The translations under genes and the position numbers were made by a program. The notes beneath the pieces are model-generated. The model was not told the origin of the DNA. It searched no databases and worked only from the letters and a program-made list of their open reading frames with translations. A stretch of DNA of 62,585 nt from Holosporaceae bacterium. Lineage in GTDB: Bacteria; Pseudomonadota; Alphaproteobacteria; UBA3830. Shown here in pieces: positions 5,943 through 38,737 of the stretch (position 1 is the stretch's first letter; each line of letters starts with the position of its first letter). Location: contig JAISZX010000061.1 in NCBI GenBank assembly GCA_031284365.1, positions 1 to 62,585 of the forward strand, written 5' to 3'.

Positions 5943-8900
5943 GTGGCACAAAATATTCTGAAAAAACTCAAGCATGCCGCAGGAATTCTTGGTGAGAAGA
6001 TTATCGATACTATAAAAAAAATAGCTAAGACACTATTCGTATTTGTGATAATTATAGTTATAATAATTCTAGTTTATCTGATTATCATTTTAGTGTTCTC
6101 CGTAACCAATTCTAAAGAACTTAAAGGAACATGTATAGAGGCGGATGAGTTCGGTCAAAAGAGAAATACAATTCCAGCAAAACCTATTAGTAATTCCGAC
6201 TACCTTTTGGAAAGCAAAACCTATAGCCATGAAAAATTCATGGAAAGAATCAAACAAACTAATCTAAGGCTTTCTTTGACCGGGGAACCCATAATGATAA
6301 ATATAATTGGCAAATGGATACCCTGGCTTAGTAATTTAACTAAAGAAGATAAGAGAAGTATTGGTCTCGACGATAATTTTTTCTGCTCTCTAGAGAAACA
6401 CAAAGTAACTGGCAGCTATTCATTTAGCAATAATGCAGAGGAAAATGAGCTCTACTATATAAGAAATTACTACAGCGGGATAAAGGAATCGATGACCAAA
6501 ACCATCGGTGAAGATAGAAAAATTAGCATTAAAGGTCTAGAGGAGATACCCGAGAGGCAAAAAGAGTGCTGGCTGACAAGGGGTGCTGGCATGTACCTGG
6601 CCGCCTACGGAGTGAATGGTAAGACTGAGCCATCAGCTTTTCACCACGTGTTGGCTTCAAAAATGATATGTAATGAGATAGACTGGTTTGGAGGAAAAAC
6701 AAAAAACGATAACTACATCATAACTCCATACAATATAGGCGACAGCAACTATAACTACAGACTAAACGACTTTAAGAAAAATTATTTTTCCATTAGCTAC
6801 TATGAAGATCCTAGCGACGTCAACACAGATTTGAATGATGAAGACAAAACAATTCTTATTCAAAATGGTGGTCAAATCATCTATAACATAGAAGCCCATG
6901 AGAACCTTCTTATAGACAAAGGGATCAAAAACTATGGACTCATTATAGCTAATTCCATGGCCAAATTTGCCCAGGCATGCTATAGAATTTCAAGAGACAT
7001 TGAAGGCAAAAATTATAGATCATATAAATCATATTTTCAGTATGGACCAAAGACGCTATATCGCAATATAGCCGGTCTACAAAATATTAAGTATGACTAT
7101 GGGGAAAAAATACAGATGATCATCGTCGACAAATACTATAAAAATAACTCTGGAGACTACCAGATAGAAATCATATCCGGCATAGAACTTGATGATGCCA
7201 ATGGCATCGAGGGAAAACTGCAGGAGGTGGAGTTTTTCCTGCTAGGAACTCCCTATGTGGGTCAACTGAAGGATAGAACTGATGGCATGATTGCTAGAAT
7301 ATTCCACAATGTCCTCAGTAATGATTTTGTGCTATTTGTCAGGGCCTCTATGGCACTGTATATTGCCATCTATGGTTTTAGAGTAGCTTTTGGCTTTAAG
7401 AAAAATAAAAATGATAAGAGCGCGATAACTCGAAGAGATCTTATGATGACCATGATCAAGCTAAGCGTAATAACAGCCATAACATCCCCAAATGCCTTTA
7501 GTTTTTTTAGTTCAGTAATTATGAGTTTTACCATAAATGGTACTATAGGAATTGTGGACATGATAGCGGGCATATTCAGAAACTCTTCCGTAAATAATAC
7601 CATATCTTTAGTTGGAGGTTTAAAATATGCTAGCAACATACCCACTCTTTCGAGAAATTTCGCCATTGTTGATGAAGTAGCGGCTTTTTTTGTGGATAAG
7701 CCACTGCTAGCTAAGGCATTTTCTTTTGTATTCATGAAAGGCATAAATTTTTTGTTTGGAGTTATTATTTCCATAGCGATGCTTCTCACAATGCTGTTCT
7801 ATCTTCTTAAGCTCTTGCAGGCCATAGTTCCATTCATATTTGTTCTAATACAATTTACCCTAGTTTTACCACTGGCACCACTATTCATACTATTTGGATT
7901 ATTTGATCAGACCAGTACCTTTATGAAAAATTGGCTAAAATTTATTTTTTCAAAGTGTCTAGAACTTATAAGTTTTTTCACAGCATTTTATTTCTGCACA
8001 AATATTATAGATAATTATGTAAAAAAACTACTGTCGTTCAGAGTTTGTTTTAAAGGACTTGGAGATCTATTATTTCCCAACAGCGAAGGTAAAAAGGCAG
8101 TTGAAGTGAAAAATTTTAATGATTTTTTTGAAGTAAACTGGATTAAAGAGATTTTGAATAATTTCATAGCAATAATAAGAGAAGATTTACCAAATAATTT
8201 CTTTATGTATTATATGATAAACATTCTCATCACAGTTGCTCTGACAATTATGTTTGACACAATAACTAAAGAAATCATGACTATAATTGGCAGCATACTC
8301 ACCATAGATGGAGCTACGGCCAATGAAGGTGGTGGTGCGAGCGCTTTAGGTTCCTTTGATAAATTTGGAGTAAGTTCACAGCTAGTTAATTTCAGTAAAA
8401 CTATGGGATTGGCTACTCTACAGAAAGAAAGTGATGCATTATCATGGACAAAGGGGCTGGTCGATCTAGAAAAGGGTATCGGCGAAAATGCTGTAAAAGT
8501 TCTGAGAGGTGCTAAAAATGTTGCAGAATTTGTAGCTAGTCCAAGTAAAGAGTCACTTGGCAATCTGATCCAAAAATCAACCTCCTGGACGGATGAAAAA
8601 GGTAATGTCCATGGAGCCTTTGACAAAGGGTCTCTAATTGATCTCAGTGGAAACAGTGGAGGTCTTATGGTGGGAGATGCACCAAGTAATAAAGATGAAG
8701 GACTATCATGGGCAGACACCGTTAAAAAAATGGATGACGTTATGTCAAGAGATTTCAAAGATACGATGGTTGATAGATTGATAGATGATGAGGGAGAGAA
8801 AAAACTTGGGAAAGATGTTTCCAAGGATATTGATCTACTTAAAGAGAGAAACAGAGAATTTAAAAACCAGATACGTGAATTATCCGATGAGGACATTAGC

Positions 8901-16126: not shown

Positions 16127-17160
16127 TGGCAGTGTGTATTTGGTCTCTAGAAGATGGCAAAGTGGGAAGTAGTAAGCAGGCCGGGTCGTTGGCTAGGGCG
16201 TTGGATAGTGCAGCAGTTACCAAAAAAATAGTGTATACACCGCTGATAGGTATACCTAATTTAATTAGACCGTTGTGGGTCGGAATTGATTTCAAGAATA
16301 GTGATAACATTGTTTCGGTGGCGGCCGAGGAGGTGCCAGAGGTCTTGGTGTTTGCAGGAAGAAGATCTGCAGGGGCGGCTCTTTTTCTGAAGAAATATTT
16401 TCTATCAAAGTTTGGCAAGAAAGTTAAACTAATAGCTATACTGAATCCTAATTATAATTTTAAACATTTTGATCTGGTTATACTGCCAATGCATGATGTA
16501 GCCAGCGGGAAAGGTAAAACAGGTGGCAATGTTATGTATATAAATGGTTCTCTTTGCAATGCTATCTTACCTCCCCTGGATTCCGTTGAAGATTATTGGA
16601 ACAATGAACTAAATGGCAGCGAGGAGCCATTTTTCTCGCTGATGGTGGGTGGAGATACAAAAAATAGCAGAATTGATCCAGTAAAGTTCGGCATAATACT
16701 AGAAAAAATATCTGGCTACGTCATTGGCAGAAATGGAACGCTGTTGGTAAGTACCAGCAGAAGGACCAGTTTTGCCTGTCTAGAGGAGATTAAAGAACAT
16801 CTAAGGTGCCACCATCATCTCTATGAATGGAGCGTTGACAGCCATATACCCAATCCGTATTATCTCTTTATAAAGAGGAGTTCAATGGTTTTTTTGACAG
16901 GAGATTCGATATCGATGGTGTCAGAGGTTGCCACCATAGGTAAACCAATATACGTATACATGCCAAGCGAATTGTCTGGAAAGAAGCACATACGATTCCT
17001 AAAAAATCTGGTTGAGTCAGGAATTGCTCGGGAGATAGAGGCTGATACCAACACAATTGAAAAATTTGGAAGTTCGGAAACTTTGAATGAACTTGATAGA
17101 GTATCAAGATTTGTTAAAAACAACATTTTGAACAATGCTAACTATGTTAATACTATATAG
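16126..17160 (+). CDS. ELM1/DUF1022-family protein (putative glycosyltransferase commonly linked to waaA)
   Basis: IWSLEDGKVGSSKQAGSLARAL ... FDLVILPMHD ... LMVGGDTKN ... LLVSTSRRT ... LTGDSISMVSEVATIGKPIYVY follows the ELM1 family pattern as I recall it. Confidence 0.75.
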   Translation: MAVCIWSLEDGKVGSSKQAGSLARALDSAAVTKKIVYTPLIGIPNLIRPLWVGIDFKNSDNIVSVAAEEVPEVLVFAGRRSAGAALFLKKYFLSKFGKKVKLIAILNPNYNFKHFDLVILPMHDVASGKGKTGGNVMYINGSLCNAILPPLDSVEDYWNNELNGSEEPFFSLMVGGDTKNSRIDPVKFGIILEKISGYVIGRNGTLLVSTSRRTSFACLEEIKEHLRCHHHLYEWSVDSHIPNPYYLFIKRSSMVFLTGDSISMVSEVATIGKPIYVYMPSELSGKKHIRFLKNLVESGIAREIEADTNTIEKFGSSETLNELDRVSRFVKNNILNNANYVNTI

Positions 17161-18418
17161 ATTTCTAACAATAATACTGTATCCATTTCTGTTTATATAC
17201 TTATTCATTAGGATTGCCAGAGGATTAGAAGATAAAAAAAGATTTTCCGAGCGTCTGGGGATAGCGAAGCGGCCAAGACCAGAGGGGAAGTTAATTTGGT
17301 TTAACGCGGTGAGCATGGGCGAAATAAATTCTGCCTGGACTATTATCAGCAGAATAAACGGTAGAAATAGGTACAACATTCTGATTACCACCACAAGTAT
17401 TACGGGAGCAGAAACAGCTATGAGAAGAATGAAGACTTTGAATTTCCCCGAGAGAGTTATACATCAGTACGCCCCAGTAGATTTTTCCTTCTCCGTACGT
17501 CGTTTTCTGAGACATTGGAAACCCAATCTGTTAATCAATGTAGAATCTGAATTTTGGCCAAATATTCTGACTATGACCAGAGAATATTGCTCTATAATAG
17601 TGCTAAATGGTAAATTATCTCGAAGATCATTCAGATTTTGGTATAAATTCCGTGGCCTAAGGGAAAAAATGTTTTCAAAAATAGATATATGTCTTGCCCA
17701 ATCTAAAAATGACTACAAAAAATTCATTAATCTAGGAGTACAGAACGTTCAGTTTTTGGGAAATATTAAATTCTTTGTGGATAAAAGTAGTGTGGACAAT
17801 GTACTCTATGAAAAATTTCTAAAAGAGGTGGGAAACAGAAATAGGTGGATGGCAAATTGTACCCACGGAGGTGAGGAGGAAATTGTGATGGAGGTGCACA
17901 AAAGACTAAAGCAGATTTATCCTGATCTTATAACTTTTCTCATTGTTAGACATGGGGATAGAATTCCTAGAGTAAAAAAGTTATTAGCTGCTGATGATTT
18001 GAAATGCATTACGACCACCGAGGGTGGTGTAATAGCGGAAGATATGGACTTTTTCATACATGATAGGTATGGCGATCTGGGTACATTTTTTGATTTTTGT
18101 AAAGTAATTTTCATGGGTGGCTCTATGAAAAAGGGTATTGGTGGCCATACTCCGGCAGAATCCATAAAACACAGGTGCTGTTTAGTAACCGGTCCGTACA
18201 TCGACAATAATTTTCTACTGTTCAAAGAATTGCAGAAAGTGGATGGCTGCACAATATTGGAAGATGATAGCGCCGATGCGCTTTTCAACTCCATCAGTTT
18301 TTTACTGAGTAATCCTGAAGCGGTAGAGCGAATCTCCAAGAATGCCTATCTTAGAAGTATACAATACAATAGTGTTCTAGGTGAAATCATAGATATAATA
18401 GTTACTAAGCTGCAGTAA
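17135..18418 (+). CDS. waaA: 3-deoxy-D-manno-octulosonic acid (Kdo) transferase
   Basis: LIWFNAVSMGEINSAWTIISRI (family motif iWxHaxSxGE), a C-terminal GGSMKKGIGGHTPAES motif, and a 26-nt overlap with the upstream gene. Confidence 0.9.
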   Translation: MLTMLILYRFLTIILYPFLFIYLFIRIARGLEDKKRFSERLGIAKRPRPEGKLIWFNAVSMGEINSAWTIISRINGRNRYNILITTTSITGAETAMRRMKTLNFPERVIHQYAPVDFSFSVRRFLRHWKPNLLINVESEFWPNILTMTREYCSIIVLNGKLSRRSFRFWYKFRGLREKMFSKIDICLAQSKNDYKKFINLGVQNVQFLGNIKFFVDKSSVDNVLYEKFLKEVGNRNRWMANCTHGGEEEIVMEVHKRLKQIYPDLITFLIVRHGDRIPRVKKLLAADDLKCITTTEGGVIAEDMDFFIHDRYGDLGTFFDFCKVIFMGGSMKKGIGGHTPAESIKHRCCLVTGPYIDNNFLLFKELQKVDGCTILEDDSADALFNSISFLLSNPEAVERISKNAYLRSIQYNSVLGEIIDIIVTKLQ

Positions 18419-18577
18419 TAGTAAACAGAAGTACATGGCAGTGAAGTATGGTTGTAAAAATACTCTGGATCTTTCAGAAAACAAAAACTGGGGCGCGTGC
18501 GTTGCATATTCAAAATTTCCAGTGTGGTACGCTAAATAATTTACGGTACTTCCATTTTCTTCTGAATTGAATTTCAC

Positions 18578-19453
18578 TTGGAAAACAAATTTATTTCGGT
18601 CGAATCGGTGAAAAATATAGGTAGCAATTTAAAAACATCATTGGCAGATTCTCCAACGAATATGGTTCGCTGTTTTAAAATAAAACCAAAAGATGGTGAT
18701 ACTCTGGCTTTCACCGAGTACCATGCGGAGTTAAAGATAGGGGACATTGTTTACAAACCTCAGTGTAATTTCGAGGAAGGTGACGAACTTAGAGCCTTTT
18801 CAGACATAACCAGCAATAGTTACGGTGTCATAGCGGCATTTGACAACGTTGGCATTAGGAAAAATGAGATTTTTCTGGGTAAATTTGATAGTGCTAGAGT
18901 GGACATATTTATGGTTGACTGTGAGCATTTGGAATACGGTAGTGTCAGCATAGTTAGTGGTTTCGTGGATTCTGTGGAAATTTCCGGGGAAAGAGTTTAT
19001 TTCAGTGTAGCTGGAATTATGAGTGTTCTCGAGAAAACGATGGGCAGCGTCTATTCTCCTCTGTGCAGAGCCAAGTTTTGTGATAGAAAGTGTGGTTTGA
19101 CTATCCAAAGCTATAGCCATCACGGTGAAATAGCCAGTGTGACCGGAGATAGCGAATTTCACAGCGAAGTTAGTGCCATAAAAGACAAAGACAGGGACTA
19201 TTTTAGATATGGATTTGTTACTTTCACAGAAGGTAAAAATGTTAGCATTTCCATTGAGGTCAAACAGTCGTATCTTGGTAATATAGTTCTAAATGTACCA
19301 CCTCCAAGTGCCATGGGGGTGGGAGATCAGTTTACACTGGTGACCGGCTGCGATAAGAAATTTAGTAGCTGTATAGAAAAATTTGGAAATGCTGTAAATT
19401 TTAGGGGCGAACCCAATTTACCAAGAACTACTAAGGTGTACAAATTCTACTAG
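18578..19453 (+). CDS. GTA/phage tail protein, g13-like (DUF2163 + BR0599 C-terminal domain)
   Basis: The C-terminal VTGCDKKFSSCIEKFGNAVNFRGEPNLP matches the conserved GCDKxxxTCxxKFxNxxNFxGFP motif of the BR0599/DUF2163 family. Confidence 0.8.
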   Translation: MENKFISVESVKNIGSNLKTSLADSPTNMVRCFKIKPKDGDTLAFTEYHAELKIGDIVYKPQCNFEEGDELRAFSDITSNSYGVIAAFDNVGIRKNEIFLGKFDSARVDIFMVDCEHLEYGSVSIVSGFVDSVEISGERVYFSVAGIMSVLEKTMGSVYSPLCRAKFCDRKCGLTIQSYSHHGEIASVTGDSEFHSEVSAIKDKDRDYFRYGFVTFTEGKNVSISIEVKQSYLGNIVLNVPPPSAMGVGDQFTLVTGCDKKFSSCIEKFGNAVNFRGEPNLPRTTKVYKFY

Positions 19454-19909
19454 ATGTCGGAAAAGATTGGTTCCAGTGAAGTACTCGTGGTAGCTAGAAA
19501 ATGGATTGGCACAAGATTTCATTTCGCCGCCAGGGTTAGAAAAAATTCTGGCAATGCTGGTGGGATTGACTGCATAGGTCTAGTTATAAAAGTTGGTGAG
19601 GATATAGGAGCCTCTTTCAACGGTAGAAATATAGCCAGCTACGATTATCTGACGTACTCAAAATATCCAAATCGCGGAGAGATGAGAGAATTTCTGGATA
19701 GCTATTTTCTAAAAATGTCTGCAACCAGCACAGGAATTGGTGATCTGATTTATTTTAATTTTCCCAATGGTCTTGAACATATAGCTATAGCTAGTGATTT
19801 GGGTATCATTCACTGCTGTCTGGAGGCTAGATCGGTTGTGGAACATCAACTCAATTCCTACTGGAAAGAGAAAATAATAGGTTTCTATAGATATAATTTT
19901 GAATTCTAA
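19454..19909 (+). CDS. GTA/phage NlpC/P60 cell-wall peptidase, g14-like
   Basis: ARKWIGTRFHFAARV...GGIDCIGLV carries the catalytic Cys and GLEHIAIA carries the His. The start codon abuts the g13-like stop (tagATG). Confidence 0.8.
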   Translation: MSEKIGSSEVLVVARKWIGTRFHFAARVRKNSGNAGGIDCIGLVIKVGEDIGASFNGRNIASYDYLTYSKYPNRGEMREFLDSYFLKMSATSTGIGDLIYFNFPNGLEHIAIASDLGIIHCCLEARSVVEHQLNSYWKEKIIGFYRYNFEF

Positions 19910-19996
19910 ATGAATGGATTTCTAGTTAGAAACTGGACGGAGCTATATACATCCAAAGGGCAATACTTGTAATGCAATGAGGCGATACCTATATAG

Positions 19997-21925
<1,929 letters not shown>

Positions 21926-22141
21926 TATCTTTGCTAGCCACATGAAGTATTTGCGGATTTTTACCGATTTTTTTTGCCATTAGCTTGCCGTTAGTTAGAT
22001 CTAGCTGCCAGCGAATAGGTTCAGCAGGGATGTCCGAGGGGTGGTGTCGATGTGGCCAGTGGTGATGGTAAAAAATGTTGATTATTAATCATAGCGGTCT
22101 TAGGTGTTCCCACATTCTTCTAGTTATATGGTAAGAGATAA

Positions 22142-22625
22142 ATGAACAGAGAGAAAATCCTTCAAAAGATCAGAAATATTGGAACCGAAGATTTTGACTT
22201 TGATCAATCCAAAGTTAGAGAGGACATGCTGCTGGAGCAGCTTTACTCTCTATGCGGGATTGTTGATTCTATGAGTTTTCTAGGCTGTGACATAGAGGAG
22301 GTTGAGCGATTCCGCAATGCTTCTGCATCTCTGCTAGATAAGATTTTTACCCAGGCGGAGCAGAACTATTGCTGTTCAAAATTATGTTCCGAACGCCACT
22401 TCGCCGCCAGATTTTGTACCAAGGAGGCAGTGGTGAAAGCTCTATCCCGCTACGGATTTGGCGGTATCACCTGCAGAGACATAGAAGTTGTAAAAGACAA
22501 AAATTTGCCAAGGATATACCATAGAGGGATTTGATATAGCTGTATCCATAAGCCATTTCAATACTAGTGCGATGGCTGTGGTTATTCTAGAGCCGAGTCG
22601 TACAAGTTTGCATTCGAAAAAATAA
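22142..22625 (+). pseudogene. acpS: holo-ACP synthase (AcpS) interrupted by a frameshift near 22527
   Basis: Frame 2 gives ...GCDIEEVERF...FTQAEQNYC...AARFCTKEAVVKAL...DIEVVKDKNLPRIYHRGI-stop. Frame 0 continues from 22527 as GFDIAVSISHFNTSAMAVVILE..., which is the AcpS C-terminal SxSH...A.A.vvle motif, and stops at 22625. Removing one G from the GGG at 22526-22528 restores a single ORF. The real start may be the ATG at 22271 (MSFLGCDIEEV). Confidence 0.7.
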
Positions 22626-22691
22626 TTCTTTACAATTTAATAAAATGTGTTACAATACCCATATTCCTAATAATAATTAGTAAGAGTTACT

Positions 22692-25600
22692 ATGACCGCT
22701 ACAGAATCAGGAAAAATGAATTGTAAACTAGCAAGCATGCTTGTCCTTTTCCTATTATTCGGAATATCAATAAGTTTCACAGCCTTTGGCACCGTAGAAG
22801 TTAGTATAGACAATTTTAATAGTCTAAAGAGAATTCTTGAAGAGCAAAAAACTCCTCAAGTGAGGCAGGCCGCTAGAAAAACAAAGGTGAATATAAAAAT
22901 AACTAAAAACATAGAACTCGAACAGGAAGGAATAGTAGCTACCTATACGTATTTATATGCTAATAAGACTATTAGCTATAGTAACGTAGTTATGTCTGGT
23001 AGTTTAGAGAAGAATACATCTGATAGTTTAAAGAATGGAAGAATTCGGATTCATGGAGAAAAACAAATGGGGATAGGACACCATTCTTTAACATTTGGTG
23101 ATTCCGACGTTGATCGAACAAATATTCTTCTGAAAGATTTGGAGTTTGATCGAACAAATATTCTTCTGAAAGATTTGGAGTTTGATAGTTGCAACAACAT
23201 ATACGAAGAAAGTAAAGATAAAGAAACAAGTTATAGGAAAGGTGGTGGAGCTATTGTTATTGGAGGACAAACAGATATTACACTGGAAAATGTAATTTTT
23301 AATAATAATAGATCAAACTATGCTGGTGGTGCTATTGCTTCTCTGGGACCAGTGATGCCTGTCGAGGGACGTGAATTTAAAAATAACTTAATTTTCAGAG
23401 GAAAAGACGATGAAAGAATTATTTTCAGTAAAAATTACGTTGGGCATGAAAGTGAAGACGATGGTCCAATAGCATTTGGGAGCGAAGGTGGTGCGGTCTA
23501 TCTGCGGTACTCAAATCTAAATTTTGAAAATGAAGTATATTTCATAGAAAATCAATCCTTTGGCTCAGGTGGAGCCGTAGCTTCCTCTGGAAATAAATAC
23601 CAGAAAAATATTATAAATTTTAAAAAAGGAGTTCTTTTAAGAAAAAATTCTAGTATTTTGGAATATAAAGGTTATATAGGTGGAGGTGCTATTTATTTTA
23701 GTGACTCAGATGCAAATTTTTATGAAAATGCAACTTTTGAAGGAAACTCTGCCAGAGGAAAAGGCGGCGCTATCTATTCCCTTGGAGCAGAAAAGAAAGA
23801 AAGCGATGAAAGAAATATTTTAAATTTCTCTGGAGAAACCAGATTCATTGATAATAAAACCAATGAAAGTTACGGTGGAGCAATTTGTGCTATAGGTTCA
23901 CGTTTTATCTTCAACGGTAAAACAAGTTTTAGCGAAAATGTTTCCCATGACAAAGGGGGTGCCATCTATATAACAACCTGGTTTCAAATTAACAATGGCA
24001 AATTTGAGAGTTCTATCTTTAAAGAACAGGCAATTTTTGAAAGAAATCAAGCTTACCAAGGTGGTAGTGCGATCTACATTGAAAATAGTACGGAGATAGT
24101 ATTCGATGCTGGCCTTAATTTGATCGATAATATCACCAAAGCACAAGAAAGTAGTGGAGCCATACATATGAAGGGGTTTAGTGACGAAAGTCTAGCCAAA
24201 ATTACCATAGTACAGAAAAATTCTAGTGAAACAATATTCAAAGGAAACGAATCAAGCAACGGAAGTGAACAAAACGCTTTCTATCTGGAACAATATTCAC
24301 GGCTAAATTTTGTAGTGAATGACAGCTACATTGATCTCTACGATAAAATAGGTGGGGACAGATCGAAAAATAACAATGTTGTAACTATAGACAAAGGCAG
24401 CGGCTGGTTCCGCATCAGAGAGGAAGGTTCAATAAATAACGTCGATCTTGTCAATAGAGGAAATCTAGATTTGGCGAGTTCAGTATCCACAGAATTTAAT
24501 CTAGTTAGTTTTACAAACTCTGGGAAAATTAAATTTGAAATATTTGACAATAGAGTGTCCGATGTAATTAAAGCAGATACGATAAGTCTAAATCAGGGAA
24601 CTACCATAGAAATATTTACCAATAGTAAAGACATTATACACGAAGGAAATGTCTACAACATTTTGATTTCTAAAAATGTCATTGTCGTTGGTGGTGAAAT
24701 AACAATTGAGCCAAAATTATTGGGCAATTTTAAAGTTGAAGGAAAACTCAGTGATGATAATAAAGTCTATAGCGTTACTGTTATAGATGATGAAGAAAGA
24801 GAGAGAAAAATAAAGGAAGAGGAAAGGAGAAAAGAAGAGGAAGAAATAAGGAGAAAGGAAGAGGAAAGGAGAAAAGAAGAGGAAGAAATAAGGAGAAAGG
24901 AAGAGGAAAAGAGAAAAGAAGAGGAAGAAATAAGGAGAAAGGAAGAGGAAAGGAGAAAAGAAGAGGAAGAAAGAAAAAGGAGAGAAGAGGAAAAGAGAAA
25001 GGAAGAGGAAGAAATAGTAAGAGTAGAGGAAGAAAGAAGAAAGGAAGAGAAAGAAATAGTGAGGAGAATAGAAGAAGATGAAAATGGGAGAAACAAGGAA
25101 AAAATAAATATAAAAGAAGAAGACGAGAAAAATGAAGAAGAAGAAGAGACAGTAAAAGAAAAAGATATGACAATAACAAAAAAAGAAGAGAAAGAGGAAG
25201 AGGAAAAAATAACAGAAGAGGGTATAGTGGAAGAAAAAAAAGATACGGTAGAAGAAATGGAAGAAATTATAAAAACAGAAGATGAAGAAAAAAAGGAAAA
25301 ACATGAAGAAATAGCGATACCATTTAAAGATAAATCTCCGGATGAAACAGTATCTTTTGCAACCAATTTGCCTGGCAATCAACAAAATTATAATATTTTC
25401 ACTCAATTTGTAGCAAATATCATCAGCAATAATCTTCTATCTACCTGCCGAGCAAAGATCAGTAAGGATATTTCCCTAGATACTGTGGTTTTGGAACCAA
25501 ACTATGGCAATAGCAAAATATCCAATAAATTAACTGAAAGTACTCCAGGTATTCTAATAACCTATGGCCACAGCTTCGAGAATTTAATTGCTAGCAGAGA

Positions 25601-26291
25601 TATTCTTCTGGGACTACAATTTAATCTAGGTAACCATTTCTTCAGAGAGTACTATGGCAACAAAGCTAGAGCCAATGAAAAAACCGTAGCCCTACAGCTG
25701 TCAAGTGAGATTGGTAACAAATTTAATTTAATCTTAAATCTATCTTATGGAAAAAATAGCTATAATTTGGCTATAAACACAGAAAAATCAGCTATGATGG
25801 CAGAAACTAGTTTTTCTACCAGTGTATTTGATGTGGCTGCAATTCTAGAAAAAGAGTTTAGAATTAAAAATAATCTAATTTTCATTCCTTCCGGGGTACT
25901 ACAAGGTTCTCTGCTGAGTCACAATAAATTTGTTGGAAAAAATGAAAGAAATTTAGATTTAGCAATTTATGGCAACAATTATCATCTATTTTTTAGTAGC
26001 CTTAATCTGAATCTAACGTTAGATTCATATAAGCTTAGACCATTTATTGAGTTAGGAGCTAAATATCTAATATCAGCATCCAAACCAGAGGTTATAGCTA
26101 ATTTTATAGATTATCCTGACTATAAATTCAGGGTTGTTGGAATGACTTTCGATAAATTGCTAGGTTCTGCGGCTTTAGGCTTTAGTTATAGGGTGACTAA
26201 CAATTTATCCATAAATCTTAAAGGTGATTACCAATTTACCAAAAACTACAGATCAATTGTCGCTAGCTTTTTTGTAACCTATAGTTTATAA
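22692..26291 (+). CDS. autotransporter-type surface protein with Pmp (GGA[IV]/FxxN) passenger repeats, charged repeat stalk and C-terminal beta-barrel
   Basis: Signal-like N-terminus. At least 8 GGA(I/V) motifs alternate with FxxN (GGGAIVIGG..FNNN; GGAIAS; EGGAVYL..FIEN; GGGAIYF..FEGN; KGGAIYS..FIDN; YGGAICA..FSEN; KGGAIYI..FERN). The last about 300 aa have an alternating-hydrophobic beta-strand pattern. Confidence 0.75.
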   Translation: MTATESGKMNCKLASMLVLFLLFGISISFTAFGTVEVSIDNFNSLKRILEEQKTPQVRQAARKTKVNIKITKNIELEQEGIVATYTYLYANKTISYSNVVMSGSLEKNTSDSLKNGRIRIHGEKQMGIGHHSLTFGDSDVDRTNILLKDLEFDRTNILLKDLEFDSCNNIYEESKDKETSYRKGGGAIVIGGQTDITLENVIFNNNRSNYAGGAIASLGPVMPVEGREFKNNLIFRGKDDERIIFSKNYVGHESEDDGPIAFGSEGGAVYLRYSNLNFENEVYFIENQSFGSGGAVASSGNKYQKNIINFKKGVLLRKNSSILEYKGYIGGGAIYFSDSDANFYENATFEGNSARGKGGAIYSLGAEKKESDERNILNFSGETRFIDNKTNESYGGAICAIGSRFIFNGKTSFSENVSHDKGGAIYITTWFQINNGKFESSIFKEQAIFERNQAYQGGSAIYIENSTEIVFDAGLNLIDNITKAQESSGAIHMKGFSDESLAKITIVQKNSSETIFKGNESSNGSEQNAFYLEQYSRLNFVVNDSYIDLYDKIGGDRSKNNNVVTIDKGSGWFRIREEGSINNVDLVNRGNLDLASSVSTEFNLVSFTNSGKIKFEIFDNRVSDVIKADTISLNQGTTIEIFTNSKDIIHEGNVYNILISKNVIVVGGEITIEPKLLGNFKVEGKLSDDNKVYSVTVIDDEERERKIKEEERRKEEEEIRRKEEERRKEEEEIRRKEEEKRKEEEEIRRKEEERRKEEEERKRREEEKRKEEEEIVRVEEERRKEEKEIVRRIEEDENGRNKEKINIKEEDEKNEEEEETVKEKDMTITKKEEKEEEEKITEEGIVEEKKDTVEEMEEIIKTEDEEKKEKHEEIAIPFKDKSPDETVSFATNLPGNQQNYNIFTQFVANIISNNLLSTCRAKISKDISLDTVVLEPNYGNSKISNKLTESTPGILITYGHSFENLIASRDILLGLQFNLGNHFFREYYGNKARANEKTVALQLSSEIGNKFNLILNLSYGKNSYNLAINTEKSAMMAETSFSTSVFDVAAILEKEFRIKNNLIFIPSGVLQGSLLSHNKFVGKNERNLDLAIYGNNYHLFFSSLNLNLTLDSYKLRPFIELGAKYLISASKPEVIANFIDYPDYKFRVVGMTFDKLLGSAALGFSYRVTNNLSINLKGDYQFTKNYRSIVASFFVTYSL
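23112..23183 (+). repeat. perfect 2 x 36-bp tandem duplication (DRTNILLKDLEF x2)
   Basis: gatcgaacaaatattcttctgaaagatttggagttt occurs twice back to back, in frame. Confidence 0.95.
24816..25070 (+). repeat. 42-nt (14-aa) coding tandem repeat, 3 near-perfect plus about 3 degenerate copies
   Basis: Units start at 24816, 24858, 24900 and 24942 (gaagaggaaaggagaaaagaagaggaagaaataaggagaaag = EERRKEEEEIRRKE) and decay towards 25070. Confidence 0.85.
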
Positions 26292-28705: not shown

Positions 28706-28969
28706 TTATCTTCTCAAAGATAGGTCTTTAATTAGCTTTGTGTATCTTGATTCATTGGTTCGTTTTAAATAGTCCAAAAGCTTTCTTCTCCTGCTAACGA
28801 TCGCCAACAAACCGCGTCTCGAGTGAAAATCTTTTGTGTGAGAATTCATGTGCTCACCCAACGCATTGATTCTCGCAGTAAGAACAGCCACTTGCACTTC
28901 CGGAGATCCAGTATCTCCTTCGTGAATAGCGAACCTGTCTATTATTTCCTTTTTGTTTTCTATCGACAT
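28706..28969 (-). CDS. rpsO: 30S ribosomal protein S15
   Basis: [52 protein letters not shown] is canonical S15. Confidence 0.97.
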
Positions 28970-29214
28970 CTTTCTTCTCCAATTTTAATTACCAGCACAT
29001 TACTGGACGAACCTAAAAAGTACGTCCAAATTCAATAAATTAGTACCGTCCAAGATATAAAGCCGGGATGTCGTCCAGCGGACTTTCTATGAAAACGATA
29101 CGCAAACTAACGTGCTATTCTACTACGTTTTTTTGTAACTTTTCAATAAAAATATGTTGTTCGTTGAAAAAAAATAGTTTCGTGTGCATGTAAGCTTATT
29201 ACTTTGATTCTTAA

Positions 29215-29291
<77 letters not shown>

Positions 29292-29378
29292 TCGCTATCA
29301 ATATATATAACGATATAAATATATTCAATACTTATAATGAAATGATTTTTTGATGTATATGTTGATATCAAAAATATG

Positions 29379-29393
29379 TTAACAAATTGTTAA
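29379..29393. promoter_or_regulatory. perfect palindrome TTAACAA-A-TTGTTAA (CtrA-box format TTAA-N7-TTAA)
   Basis: Read directly at 29379-29393. A one-mismatch relative, cTAActaattgTTAA, lies at 29411-29425. Confidence 0.5.
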
Positions 29394-29484
29394 TTTGCCA
29401 GAGAATCTCGCTAACTAATTGTTAATGAATGATAACGCAAGGTGGATGTTTCCAAAATTTTCTAGAACAAAACTGTTAGTATCC

Positions 29485-29493
29485 TGTGGATAA
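29485..29493 (-). promoter_or_regulatory. perfect DnaA box (TTATCCACA on the minus strand)
   Basis: tgtggataa at 29485-29493. One-mismatch boxes are TTATCAACA at 29555-29563 and cTATCCACc at 29722-29730. Confidence 0.45.
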
Positions 29494-29535
29494 ATAGTGA
29501 ACAAAAATTGGAATTGTTCGGATTAATGTAAGTTA

Positions 29536-29551
29536 TTAACAATTTGTTAAC
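29536..29551. promoter_or_regulatory. perfect palindrome TTAACAA-T-TTGTTAA(C) (full CtrA consensus TTAA-N7-TTAAC)
   Basis: Read directly at 29536-29551. It overlaps the first copy of an 11-bp direct repeat ttgttaacatg (29544-54 and 29566-76). Confidence 0.5.
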
Positions 29552-30128
29552 ATGTTATCAACAGGTTGTTAACATGGACGTACCATTAGCCAATATAGAG
29601 GTTTTTTCTAGAGGAGCAATCAATCCTTAATTCTTTGCTTTAACAAGTGAATGGCGAGATATATACACATGTCTCTAGGAAAAAGCCCTGAACTTAATGT
29701 CGACGTAGTCTGCGCGGTACACTATCCACCAACTATCACATTATACCAAAATAGTAAAAATTTTGTTAATTTTTCAAATTATTTTTTATTCCTTAAAAAA
29801 TAACGCTTTTTTAACATATTTTTCATAATATGGTAATCGGTGGAAGATGCTCCGCGCCAATTGGATTAATAACAAATTAATAAAGCAATTAACATCTTTC
29901 TGAAATTTCAGATTGAAAAAGGATCTGATGGATGGTAAGTGTTTTTTTGTAGAATTGACCAACTTTTTGCTTTTTTTTTGGCGTAGTATTTTTGGTGTAA
30001 AATGTGCTCGTGTATGAATGTTGTTTGCGGAATTGCTGCAAAAATAGGCATGAGTGCCTCGACAATTTTCCGAGAAATTGCTTATAATTAAGTGTCTGGC
30101 GTTTACATAAAGAGTTGCAGCGCAAGCG

Positions 30129-32819
30129 TTATTCATGCAACCCAAGTATCTGCCATCCTGGATTCTCAACATAATTTTTTATATTAGACAGAAATTCCGA
30201 AGCTTTTCTGGTATCAGAAATTCTGTGATCATACGATAAAGATATATAAAGCATTGGCCTGATTTCCATTCCGCCATCGGCAACGACTGGTCGATTGTGC
30301 ATTTTATGAACGCTTAAAGTTGCGACCTGTGGTGGTGTAAGTAGATCTGTTCCTATTAGTGAGCCGTAAATTCCAGCGTTAACAACTGTAAAAGTTCCTC
30401 CGGAGGCTTCCTCTATTGATAAAGTTCCTTCTATAGCTCGTCTTGACAAATGAATCATTGCCACTTCGATTTCAGCAATTGTCATCGCATCCGCGTGCCT
30501 TATTACTGGTGCTGCTATACCATCATTTCCGCAGGTAATAATGGATATATCAAAATTATTTTTATATATGATTTCATCATTATGAATATGCGCATTAAAG
30601 ATGCGGTATTGCTTCAACGCAGCAATGCTGGCCGAGATAAAAAATGGGGTAAATCCAAGTCTAGTATTGTGCTTTTTCGAAAAAGCATTGCCAAAAGTTT
30701 TCTCCAAAGCTAGAATGGCACCCATATTAACTTCGTTCGATACAGTTGAAATAACTGACGCGTCGTAGGAATCGCGCATTTTTTCTGAGATACGACGTCG
30801 CAAAAAATCTATCGGCTCATTGTAATCTCCCGGAGTTTCAAAAAATTTAGGTTTATTCCAATTATCTGCGTATACTTCCGGAGTGTTGCTTTCTTGCTCT
30901 ACACTTAACAATTTTTTTACAATTCTATTTTGTTCCTCAATTTCGCAATTCTTCTCTTTTAAAACTTTATTGTGCAAATCAGATTCTTCTTTAGTAAAGT
31001 TTCCAAATTGTTCAGTCGTTTCATTCTTTGTGACATCTGTTATCTCACTATTCACAGTGCTAGTGTTTATCTCCGCGACATGTTTTTTGCATGTCTCATT
31101 TTTTAAAACATTAACAGTTCTGTGAACACTTTCGTACATATTTTTGTTAATTTCAACTACGGCAAAATGTACCATTTCCACAGTCGTTTCTTCGATTTTT
31201 TCGATAACATCAGCCTTAACATTGCCAATAGTTTTCTCGATGGAAGACTTAATTTCTTTGTAAGCATTTTTCCTAGCGTCGTCTACGGCTTCACGTACAT
31301 CACACTCCATTTTTTCGTTTATCTCAGCTACAACGCGTTTTAGCGTCAAATTAGTCATTCCGCGAACATTATCACAGGCAATTTTTCTAACTTCACTAAC
31401 CATTTCGTATATATCATGTCCAATTTTTTGATTGATTTCTGTAATAATCGAATTTAACACTGAGTGCATCGATTCGCTAATTTCAGAACAAGCATTTCTC
31501 CTCGTATTATCAACAACTTCGTGCAGATCTTTACCCATTTCTTGATTAATTTGTACAATAATAGAGCGCAGCATTGAACTTGCCGATTCACGGATTTCAT
31601 TGCATGCTTCAATTTTTCCGTCATTCATTACATCGCGAATGTTATTCTCAATTTTTTTGTTAATCTCATTAATGGCAGATTCCAGAATTGAATGAGTCGT
31701 TCCACATATTTCATTATTTGCAATTTTGAGAATTTCTTCCTTTAGTAACTCTGCTTCGTTGGAAGCTAACCGTGTTGTTGATTCAATTAACTCTTCAGCG
31801 TGAACATGTGAACGCATTCTGGCATCTTTAACGATTTCTTTTACTATCGTTTTTGATTCCTTTGCTGCATGTTTACGTGCAGAATGAATGATATCTTTTT
31901 TTATCGCTTTCGCTTCCATTTTTGATTCATTTATAGCTTCCTCGATAATTTCTTTTGATAGCAATTCTGCAGCTTGTTTCGCTTCCTCTTTTGCGTTGGA
32001 GATGGCATCTTTTATTGTTGTTTCAGCTTTGTACTTAGCTTCTTTTTCCGCATTACTGATGATTTCATAGCGAATATTTTCAGCTTCCTTCAGGGCGCGC
32101 TCTCGAGCCTCATCTATTAATTTTAATTTTGTATTTTCTGCCTCTTGGATTGAGCCTTGAATAATTTTTTTGTGCATTTCACTGGCGTCTCTAGTTGCTT
32201 TTTCCTCATATTCTCTTAATATTTTGCACTTAAGCTCTTCAGCTTGCATGAAAGCCAGTCTTCGAGCTTCCTCAATGATCTTTTCTTTCAGTTTATGAGA
32301 CTCTTCTCTGGCTTGATTTTCGGCATTTTTAAGGATATTCATGCACTTTTCTTCTGTATGTACATAAACTTCACCTATTATCTCTTCTTCAATTTTCACA
32401 CTTTTTTCAACTGAGGTTTCAACAAGTGGAACCGAAAGACCGTGCCCTTTGCTGGTAAAATCATTGAAAATTTGATTTTCTTCATGAATTTCATTCTGTA
32501 TCTCAGATCCTACAACATCAGATACAATTTTTGCTTCCATTATTTCTACACTTCGTATAACGTCAGATATATCCGCGCTCAAATCCGTTTCTATGACAGC
32601 AATTTTTGTTCCCTGCGGAATTACAGCACCTTCTTCCACCAAGATCTTCACTAATATACAGTCGTAACTCGACGTAATGCCGCATGCCACAGACATGGTT
32701 TCAGCATCCGCTACTATTTCATTTTTAGAAATTCTTTCGCCTACACTTTTATACCAAGAAGACAGGACAACTTCCTCTGAAGAGTTATCAAAATTCGGAA
32801 CTATTATATCTATACGCAT
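30129..32819 (-). CDS. E2 (SucB-type) 2-oxoacid dehydrogenase acyltransferase homologue with a degenerate lipoyl domain and a long helical-repeat insert
   Basis: The C-terminal 230 aa form the acyltransferase catalytic domain (GGTFTVVNAGIYGS ... LSYDHRISD). The N-terminal about 75 aa are lipoyl-domain-like, but ETDKV reads ETMSV. ATG at 32819 (MRIDIIVPNF, GGTGA 7 nt upstream) is preferred over the longest-ORF start at 32921. Confidence 0.8.
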   Translation of the reverse strand: MRIDIIVPNFDNSSEEVVLSSWYKSVGERISKNEIVADAETMSVACGITSSYDCILVKILVEEGAVIPQGTKIAVIETDLSADISDVIRSVEIMEAKIVSDVVGSEIQNEIHEENQIFNDFTSKGHGLSVPLVETSVEKSVKIEEEIIGEVYVHTEEKCMNILKNAENQAREESHKLKEKIIEEARRLAFMQAEELKCKILREYEEKATRDASEMHKKIIQGSIQEAENTKLKLIDEARERALKEAENIRYEIISNAEKEAKYKAETTIKDAISNAKEEAKQAAELLSKEIIEEAINESKMEAKAIKKDIIHSARKHAAKESKTIVKEIVKDARMRSHVHAEELIESTTRLASNEAELLKEEILKIANNEICGTTHSILESAINEINKKIENNIRDVMNDGKIEACNEIRESASSMLRSIIVQINQEMGKDLHEVVDNTRRNACSEISESMHSVLNSIITEINQKIGHDIYEMVSEVRKIACDNVRGMTNLTLKRVVAEINEKMECDVREAVDDARKNAYKEIKSSIEKTIGNVKADVIEKIEETTVEMVHFAVVEINKNMYESVHRTVNVLKNETCKKHVAEINTSTVNSEITDVTKNETTEQFGNFTKEESDLHNKVLKEKNCEIEEQNRIVKKLLSVEQESNTPEVYADNWNKPKFFETPGDYNEPIDFLRRRISEKMRDSYDASVISTVSNEVNMGAILALEKTFGNAFSKKHNTRLGFTPFFISASIAALKQYRIFNAHIHNDEIIYKNNFDISIITCGNDGIAAPVIRHADAMTIAEIEVAMIHLSRRAIEGTLSIEEASGGTFTVVNAGIYGSLIGTDLLTPPQVATLSVHKMHNRPVVADGGMEIRPMLYISLSYDHRISDTRKASEFLSNIKNYVENPGWQILGLHE

Positions 32820-38464: not shown

Positions 38465-38737
38465 ATGAACAAATCTGAGTTAATTGATGCTGTATCAGGA
38501 GATAGCGGGTTGACAAAAACTGATACCGAAAGAGTCATCAATTCTTTCATTGCCGTTACGCAAAAAGCATTAAAAAAAAGAGATGACGTTTCTATTGTTG
38601 GGTTTGGAAGTTTTTTTGTAAAAGACACGGCCGGCAGAAGTGGAAGAGATTTCAAGACTGGTGCGCCTATCAGCATTCCTCCGGGAAAGTCTGTTCGTTT
38701 TAAGGCTGGAAAGAATCTGAAGGATGCAGTAAATTGA
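38465..38737 (+). CDS. hup: DNA-binding protein HU/IHF family
   Basis: MNKSELIDAVS...LTKTDTERVINSFI...VSIVGFGSFFVKDTAGRSGRDFKTGAPISIPPGKSVRFKAGKNLKDAV is canonical HU. GGAG lies 7 nt upstream. Confidence 0.93.
   Translation: MNKSELIDAVSGDSGLTKTDTERVINSFIAVTQKALKKRDDVSIVGFGSFFVKDTAGRSGRDFKTGAPISIPPGKSVRFKAGKNLKDAVN

Follow-up and report, generated by a model that had tools for sequence, protein, structure and literature searches.

A probable replication origin beside tRNA-Pro(UGG)

The window analysed here (the whole stretch of 62,585 nt, or 62.6 kb, a contig of a Holosporaceae metagenome-assembled genome, MAG) contains at 29292-29592 an array of DnaA boxes and CtrA boxes (TTAA-N7-TTAA) that lies directly upstream of the tRNA-Pro(UGG) gene. 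This array is probably the chromosomal replication origin (oriC), of the Cori type known from Caulobacter and at a non-canonical locus. A Cori-like origin had been proposed by an earlier reading made from the letters only (hereafter the sequence-only reading), and this proposal is supported by the occurrence of ctrA and dnaA in the genome, by the conservation of the array, by its first rank in a genome-wide scan and by switches of strand bias in three genera. With this evidence the proposal has become stronger. The assembly comprises 1,436,221 bp (1.44 Mb) in 133 contigs, which are designated by C-numbers, with G-numbers for the relatives and G000 for the genome itself. The stretch at 29292-29592 is called the core, or module; its sites are labelled A to D (Table 1).

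Direct reading of 28800-30400 located TTAACAAATTGTTAA at 29379-29393 and TTAACAATTTGTTAA at 29536-29550, both of which are full TTAA-N7-TTAAC boxes, in agreement with the sequence-only reading. When taken with one flanking base each, the two palindromes correspond to the same 16-mer, TTAACAATTTGTTAAC, in opposite orientations, and further extension gives a 19-bp inverted repeat, ATTAACAATTTGTTAACAT, whose arms are separated by 142 bp. Site A reads TTAACAATTTGTTAAC on the plus strand and TTAACAAATTGTTAA on the minus strand, which is the direction of the tRNA. A third copy at 29411-29425 (CTAACTAATTGTTAA), said to carry one mismatch, does so relative to TTAA-N7-TTAA but has two relative to the extended palindrome. 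In total, the core contains two perfect full CtrA boxes, one with one mismatch and one remnant that lies in site B.

The perfect DnaA box TTATCCACA that had been recognised on the minus strand is present at 29485-29493, where the plus-strand letters are TGTGGATAA. Two further boxes had been proposed to differ from the consensus by one mismatch: the one at 29555-29563 (TTATCAACA) does, while the one at 29722-29730 (CTATCCACC) has two mismatches, is missing from the list of window DnaA boxes with at most one mismatch and lies in a dispersed repeat (see below). The 300-bp core accordingly holds one perfect DnaA box and one with a single mismatch, a number that is weak alone, the window having 28. 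The TTATCAACA box overlaps a match to the integration host factor (IHF) consensus, WATCAANNNNTTR, at 29556-29568; this match, a candidate IHF site, is the only one in the core, against 13 in the window, a ca. 6% event by chance. The 11-bp direct repeat TTGTTAACATG was found at 29544 and 29566 as described. The tract at 29292-29378, which had been taken as nearly pure A/T, is in fact 81.6% A+T, and its least stable 60-mer ranks second for instability in the window (99.997th percentile).

Rarity of the module in the window and in the genome

With one mismatch allowed, the 15-mer palindrome occurs twice in the window against 0.05 copies expected, and none of 100 shuffled sequences reached two, which bears out the view that two extended palindromes are unlikely by chance. 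No other copy was detected in the whole 133-contig assembly, so that a motif common across these 1.436 Mb, which would have spoken for a dispersed repeat, is not what is seen here. Single CtrA or DnaA boxes are unremarkable in this DNA, with 10 TTAA-N7-TTAA in the window versus 5.7 ± 2.5 expected, and 28 DnaA boxes with at most one mismatch (four perfect) versus 18.3 ± 4.2; it is the extended palindromes, together with clustering and conservation, that carry the significance.

When the whole assembly was scanned in sliding 600-bp windows, each scored for its CtrA boxes and its DnaA boxes (perfect or with one mismatch), that at 29301 ranked first, with a score of 7.5 versus 5.0 for the next. 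TTAA-N7-TTAA occurs 111 times in the genome, including 82 intergenic cases, and the module is the only place where two full TTAAC boxes are found within 300 bp of each other. Other full CtrA boxes are single and precede genes by 5-250 bp, in keeping with a global regulator; these genes mostly encode hypothetical proteins, together with GyrB and a TssF-like protein.

A blastn search of 29292-30128 against the assembly further indicated that the core has no second copy, and that the sequence from 29593 to ca. 29930 is a dispersed repeat whose copies are 80-88% identical, the first 100 bp being found in 25-30 copies and a 330-bp unit in ca. 14. From there to 30128, two or three further genomic copies exist. 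The gene-free gap of 840 bp, treated so far as one unit, is then composed of ca. 300 bp of unique DNA (29292-29592) and ca. 540 bp that are repeat-borne; the dispersed repeat carries the alleged DnaA box at 29722 as well as a third TTAA-N7-TTAA (29866).

Organism and initiation factors

The PNPase encoded next to the module has relatives at 69-78% identity in MAGs labelled Holosporaceae from termite gut and rumen, and the sole public run with the window sequence is a termite-gut metagenome. The organism is an uncultured termite-gut bacterium of the Holosporales, not of the Rickettsiales, whose predicted origins the sequence-only reading had cited. A Chlamydia affiliation, suggested at first by a Pmp-repeat match, was abandoned in view of the PNPase relatives. 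Its genome, at 1.44 Mb, is larger than those of most congeners (0.8-1.1 Mb), G021, which is also fragmented, reaching 1.3 Mb. Profile searches detected DnaA on C98 (549.7 bits) and CtrA on C133 (357 bits for an equivalog cut-off of 350). Four genes of the HU/IHF family were found, two of which carry a GRNPKTGE motif typical of IHF alpha and beta, as judged by eye and not scored against a model. These two IHF-like genes are on C80 and C106, and an HU-like protein gene (PF00216, 103 bits) is located at 38465-38734 in the window, 9 kb from the module.

Across the genus, ctrA was found in 11 of the 12 genomes, the exception being G022 (93% complete). In this 848-kb assembly, in which ctrA was not detected, the module is present at C6:18469-18812 with perfect sites A and B and degenerate sites C and D. 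Either ctrA falls in an assembly gap or this lineage is losing CtrA control.

In Caulobacter and Rickettsia, the origin is flanked by hemE and COG1806, a situation that guided the Wolbachia prediction (PMC1914354). Neither hemE (TIGR01464) nor COG1806/DUF299 (PF03618) gave a match in G000, G022 or G017, so that the lack of these flanking genes reflects their absence from the genomes and points to a non-canonical location rather than to a failure of synteny. We consider it likely that the origin of this lineage, which has lost hemE, lies beside tRNA-Pro(UGG) instead.

The way in which such an origin would operate can be modelled on Caulobacter (PMC1914354 and general knowledge), from which binding, unwinding and repression are all extrapolated. 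DnaA, or DnaA-ATP, would bind the box at 29485-29493 in site B and the inverted box at 29555-29563, probably along with weaker ones, and once bound would open the adjacent, very unstable AT-rich tract at 29292-29378. Dimers of phosphorylated CtrA (CtrA~P) would occupy sites A, C and D and the remnant in site B, interleaved with or overlapping the DnaA positions, and would block DnaA or the unwinding, hence initiation in non-replicating cells, until CtrA is removed. Transcription from the tRNA-Pro promoter, which lies inside the predicted unwinding region, may help the opening, as proposed for Ps of Cori.

Conservation within the genus

When the 340-bp sequences preceding tRNA-Pro were aligned for all 12 genus genomes, each showed the same plan, namely sites A, B, C and D, an A-rich spacer, TATTGAA (-35), a -10 box at 17 bp and the tRNA. 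The consensus is tGTTAAtAAnTTGTTAAc for site A (window 29536-29550), TTAACAAnnnGTTAAC for site C (29425-29411) and GTTAAnnnnTnATTAACAtAT for site D (29393-29379), while site B is a tandem of two 9-mers (29493-29473). Every genome has two to four perfect TTAA-N7-TTAA boxes, all oriented toward the tRNA, and only the TTAA-N7-TTAAC frame is kept across relatives, with inner bases that vary. The -35 block TATTGAA is invariant in the 12 genomes and recurs across the family.

Site B reads differently in different genomes: it is TTATCCACA-GG-ATACTAACA here, TCATCCACA-AT-TCATCCACA in the closest relative (G021), and a perfect CtrA box, TTATTAACA-N3-TATTAACA, in G023, G018 and G022. Judging from this alignment, the perfect DnaA box of the window represents a lineage-specific state of a site that is otherwise CtrA-like within the genus.

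The gene found upstream of the module varies (rpmB, a 555-aa or 580-aa open reading frame (ORF), a 302-aa ORF, or the SucB-like gene in the present genome) and is divergent in four of six genomes. Downstream, the order is tRNA-Pro-truB-rpsO-pnp or, as here, tRNA-Pro-rpsO-pnp. In G024, where tRNA-Pro and rpsO are on separate contigs, the module remains with tRNA-Pro.

Conservation across the family

The tRNA-Pro(UGG) gene was located in 42 of 45 family genomes, and the 400 bp upstream of it were examined in 30, DnaA boxes being counted with up to one mismatch. The pooled 12 kb contain 60 CtrA boxes and 53 DnaA boxes (5.0 and 4.4 per kb); the other 70 kb of these loci contain 9 (0.13 per kb) and 26 (0.37 per kb), respectively. 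Outside the genus, this upstream region combines CtrA boxes with clusters of DnaA boxes: four DnaA and three CtrA boxes in G003, three and four in G001, three of each in G035, and three and two in G008, G014, G015 and G016. CtrA boxes are lacking in G009, which has seven DnaA boxes (four perfect), and in G006, which has four (two perfect).

Several DnaA boxes recur at similar distances from the tRNA. An inverted box at -245 to -335 was observed in 13 of the 30 genomes and is represented in the window by 29555-29563; a forward box at -140 to -230, in 14 of 30, has the perfect box of site B as its equivalent; and a further forward box recurs at -73 to -125, a position taken by CtrA site D in the window.

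Strand bias

Plain GC skew mostly tracks gene orientation in these genomes, and the coding-strand GC skew at third codon positions (GC3 skew) was therefore compared between plus- and minus-strand genes on each side of the module. Calibration on G022:C22, a 274-kb contig that forms one replichore, gave on average +0.12 for leading-strand genes and +0.02 for lagging-strand genes.

In G022, which belongs to the same genus, 11 minus-strand genes left of the module on C6 average +0.19, while on the right the averages are +0.18 for 18 plus-strand genes and -0.03 for 15 minus-strand genes; the left and right minus-strand genes differ with p = 0.0007 (Mann-Whitney). An unbiased change-point scan of all 24 contigs of this genome gave its strongest origin-type split here (t = 4.5, p = 4e-4), with an optimum at 18392-18813 that is exactly the module, between tRNA-Pro and its divergent neighbour. 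In G013, which belongs to the sister genus and has strong skew, both classes of genes flip on C7: plus-strand genes go from +0.03 on the left to +0.30 on the right, and minus-strand genes from +0.19 to -0.10 (t = 5.9, p = 1.6e-6 for a split at the site, the optimum lying anywhere within 24.8-29.8 kb). A switch at the module was also obtained in a third genus, on G014:C22, where the right side has just three genes (p = 0.03) and the module contains four imperfect DnaA boxes and two CtrA boxes. The expected polarity was found on the single arm available in G018, G019, G023 and G040, and in G042 on the left and for ca. 17 kb on the right, beyond which it is reversed.

The G013 module (C7:24707-25080) is itself located between two divergent tRNA genes, tRNA-Pro and a second one; it has one perfect CtrA box and no DnaA box with one mismatch or less, yet the clearest strand-bias switch occurs there or within 5 kb.

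The genome under study is full of repeats, and GC skew, gene orientation and GC3 bias in all of its own contigs showed no convincing switch (best t = 2.6; none on C120). The skew analysis that had been suggested as a check on this genome thus yielded no usable switch in any contig.

Read depth

The only run containing the sequence (X1) is kept as assembler (Logan) contigs at ca. 14x, and seven contigs were sampled. Long pieces have depths of 13.7-14.2 in the window, 13.1-13.6 in C98 (which carries dnaA), 12.9-15.0 in C118, 10-15.5 in C129, 12.9-13.3 in C38, 12-14.1 in C11 and 11.4-15.8 in C53. Marker frequency, which had also been put forward as a check, is uninformative here (see below).

In the same run, only short contigs with a depth of 5-8, versus ca. 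14 on either side, correspond to window positions 19501-26200. This region includes a Pmp-repeat autotransporter gene (22692-26291), and its low and broken depth suggests strain-level variation in a surface-protein region.

Alternative explanations

Several observations weigh against the module being the origin. The module always travels with a strong promoter, and a purely transcriptional role fits its local conservation equally well. In the window's own contig there is no origin-type switch, the GC3 skew of plus- and minus-strand genes being equal on both sides (the caveat of the sequence-only reading that no strand switch is visible at this site therefore stands), and the next genes beyond tRNA-Pro-rpsO-pnp on the left, as well as the first genes on the right, point toward the site. 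Among relatives, G017:C21 is flat on both sides of the module, G024 and G027 tend to the opposite polarity, on two to six genes per class, and G022, counted here as the clearest switch, has no detectable ctrA. The switch of G013 is resolved only to ca. 5 kb, and a second intergenic region, at 28.3-28.9 kb and 3.5 kb off, contains two DnaA boxes, both imperfect. From read depth, no marker-frequency signal emerged for or against the module, the scatter within contigs (11-16) equalling that between contigs in X1. Finally, the core has only one perfect and one imperfect DnaA box, the position of the perfect one is usually occupied by a CtrA-type sequence within the genus, and several genus genomes are devoid of any DnaA box with one mismatch or less in the module.

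The main rival explanation is that the module is only a transcriptional control region in which CtrA, and in some species DnaA as well, regulates the strong promoter of tRNA-Pro-(truB)-rpsO-pnp, with the origin elsewhere; translation capacity would then be coupled to the cell cycle or the developmental cycle. In its favour, all sites point toward a conserved -35/-10 promoter situated 60 bp downstream of site D, the module accompanies tRNA-Pro everywhere despite changes of the upstream gene, genus genomes have few DnaA boxes, and neither the window's contig nor G017 has a strand switch. Such an explanation is nonetheless unlikely in view of the strand-bias switches that three genera show at the module or no more than 5 kb from it and of the clusters of four to seven DnaA boxes upstream of the tRNA in G009, G006 and G003, which are typical of an origin and not of a promoter. 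Besides, other CtrA boxes of the genome are single, no other genomic locus combines the boxes, and the two roles are compatible since Cori itself contains a CtrA-repressed promoter.

The palindromes might also be operators of another dimeric DNA-binding protein, an alternative already raised by the sequence-only reading, their fit to TTAA-N7-TTAAC being coincidental. Their 7+1+7 symmetry (TTAACAA-N-TTGTTAA) indeed exceeds that of the canonical CtrA box, but the inner bases are variable across relatives and only the TTAA-N7-TTAAC frame is kept, ctrA occurs in 11 of 12 genus genomes, and single full boxes 5-250 bp upstream of many genes follow the pattern of a global regulator. G022, which retains two perfect boxes with no ctrA found, would fit another protein, but its assembly is only 93% complete, and we regard this explanation as very improbable. 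That the sites belong to a mobile or dispersed repeat, such as a miniature inverted-repeat transposable element (MITE) with the 19-bp inverted repeat as its ends, is scarcely credible: the 142-bp spacing of the arms and the true dispersed repeat that starts at 29593 are suggestive of it, but the core has no other copy in the genome and is orthologous site by site in 11 other genus genomes. For the core, the MITE idea is refuted by single copy and orthology across the genus.

Other DnaA-box elements

Apart from the module, C129:1225 and C118:10110 carry TTATCCACAGAGTTATCCACAGG followed by CTCTGTT, in elements (C118:10087-10231 and C129:1124-1268) that are 86% identical over 145 bp. The underlying pattern, TTATCCACA-N3-TTATCCACA, usually followed by an inverted TGTTGATAA, was found in 32 of the 45 family genomes, mostly as a single copy and twice here, whereas the reversed control pattern gave no matches in these genomes. 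In the sister genus, this twin-box element is located upstream of truB-rpsO-pnp, and site B of the window looks like a decayed relative of it.

The twin-box element was rejected as an origin. On the 226-kb contig C1 of G013, a single strand bias runs straight through it (GC3 skew of +0.26 and +0.21 on the two sides for minus-strand genes, -0.09 and -0.06 for plus-strand genes); on G017:C37 its flank has the wrong polarity; and it is absent from 5 of 11 congeners. It may act in DnaA titration or reactivation, as datA or DARS do, or it may be a promoter under DnaA control. Two other candidates were set aside, a DnaA-like cluster at the end of G022:C6, to the left of which 47 kb replicate rightward, and the neighbourhood of dnaA on C98, where no box cluster was found. 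Elsewhere in the window, 17776-17799 contains a perfect DnaA box (TTATCCACA) and a one-mismatch TTGTCCACA, 15 bp apart on the minus strand, in or beside an ORF at 17135-18418, and lone perfect boxes occur at 7691 and 52384.

A broader scenario, which we put forward tentatively and hold to be possible but somewhat doubtful, is that the whole protist- and gut-associated Holosporales family moved its origin to the 5' flank of tRNA-Pro(UGG), where it fused with the promoter, and that DnaA and CtrA boxes flipped at homologous positions, the twin-box element being a datA/DARS-like site. Under this scenario, site B would be the clearest flip, being TTATCCACA in the present genome, a pair of TCATCCACA in the closest relative and a CtrA box of the TTATTAACA type in other congeners, and origins would range from DnaA-only (G009, with seven DnaA boxes and no CtrA box) to CtrA-dominated as in the present genus.

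Features of the locus and its neighbourhood

The coordinates of the features are collected in Table 1.

Table 1. Features of the putative origin and of its borders (window coordinates)
Feature	Coordinates	Strand	Evidence
tRNA-Pro(UGG), first gene of tRNA-Pro-rpsO-pnp	29215-29291	-	ARAGORN and Rfam; conserved right-hand anchor of the module in every relative
AT-rich tract, 81.6% A+T; candidate DNA-unwinding element and tRNA-Pro promoter/upstream region	29292-29378		Stability scan
Sigma-70-type promoter TTGAAT-N17-TATATT, just upstream of tRNA-Pro, inside the AT-rich tract	29300-29328	-	Promoter scan
CtrA-type site D, perfect 7+1+7 palindrome, reads TTAACAATTTGTTAAC on minus	29378-29393	-	Half-site ATTAACA kept in 12/12 genus genomes
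CtrA-type site C, reads TTAACAATTAGTTAG on minus, one mismatch from TTAA-N7-TTAA	29411-29425	-	Perfect TTAACAAnnnGTTAAC at the orthologous position in most relatives
Site B, reads TTATCCACA-GG-ATACTAACA on minus; perfect DnaA box at 29485-29493	29473-29493	-	Direct reading, box scan
CtrA-type site A, perfect palindrome, inverted copy of site D	29536-29551	+	TTGTTA invariant in 12/12 genus genomes
Imperfect DnaA box TTATCAACA, one mismatch, inverted relative to site B	29555-29563	+	Box scan
Second copy of TTGTTAACATG, a lone TTAAC half-site near the outer limit of the unique core	29566-29576	+	Direct reading
Dispersed repeat adjoining the module, not part of the origin	29593-29930		blastn, 14-30 copies

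To the left of the core, tRNA-Pro(UGG) is followed by rpsO and pnp. In most relatives truB lies between tRNA-Pro and rpsO; it is absent from that position here, where 28970-29214 is a 245-bp spacer with a promoter-like site at 29146-29117 on the minus strand. To the right, past the repeats, is the 3' end of a gene for a 930-aa SucB-derived product, on the same strand as tRNA-Pro. No RNA family other than the tRNA was detected in the gap with Rfam.

Copies of the dispersed repeat are often located at contig ends across the assembly, and the split of the latter into 133 contigs is probably explained by this ca. 330-bp repeat. It also holds a strong promoter-like site (29769-29740, minus strand), and the two ORFs inside it, 29651-29803 and 29786-30172, gave no family match.

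Significance and comparison with known systems

For uncultured bacteria such as these, known from fragmented MAGs that lack hemE, the usual routes to finding an origin fail. If our interpretation is correct, tRNA-Pro(UGG) together with the box array would provide an easily recognised landmark to orient such genomes, growth-rate estimates from metagenomes (peak-to-trough ratio) would become possible, and CtrA cell-cycle control could be compared with that of Caulobacter and of the Rickettsiales, which became intracellular independently. If DnaA and CtrA boxes do exchange at the same positions, as it appears, this would amount to a natural experiment on the competition between activator and repressor sites at an origin.

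Paired tandem DnaA boxes reportedly belong to a basal origin-unwinding system, in work ascribed to Richardson (2016) and Pelliciari (2021). Site B resembles them in being made of two tandem 9-mers spaced by 11-12 bp, and the family also has TTATCCACA-N3-TTATCCACA; unlike them, the perfect twin-box element is located elsewhere (C118, C129) and off the skew switch in relatives. No DnaA-trio run was recognised next to site B by eye, no systematic scan having been made.

Literature searches found no account of an origin, or of control by CtrA, for any member of the Holosporales, and oriC, DnaA and CtrA all go unmentioned in a 2025 review of the order (PMC11909080). From its sequence, the module appears to be a new member of the Cori-type origins at a new locus, with the particularity that DnaA and CtrA boxes seem to swap at homologous positions. 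As in Cori of C. crescentus (Marczynski and Shapiro; PMC1914354), several CtrA boxes interleave with the DnaA boxes or overlap them, the array includes an AT-rich element and a strong promoter (Ps in Cori), and ctrA, dnaA and IHF-like genes are present. Unlike Cori, the module adjoins tRNA-Pro(UGG) instead of lying between hemE and COG1806, both absent here, its embedded promoter drives a tRNA and ribosomal-protein operon, its CtrA sites are all co-oriented, and it is a predicted origin.

The origins of Rickettsia, Wolbachia, Ehrlichia and Anaplasma, which are obligate intracellular alphaproteobacteria, were likewise predicted in silico (Brassinga 2002; Ioannidis 2007, PMC1914354), on the basis of the number of DnaA, CtrA and IHF sites, of uniqueness among intergenic regions and of high A+T content (PMC1914354). 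The module shares with these predictions its in silico nature, its combination of DnaA and CtrA sites, its uniqueness and its A+T richness, as well as a number of CtrA boxes that varies among relatives (0-7 there, 0-4 here). It differs from them in belonging to another order, the Holosporales, in being anchored by a tRNA gene with no hemE or COG1253 anchor, and in the strand-bias switches of three genera, which here bring additional support.

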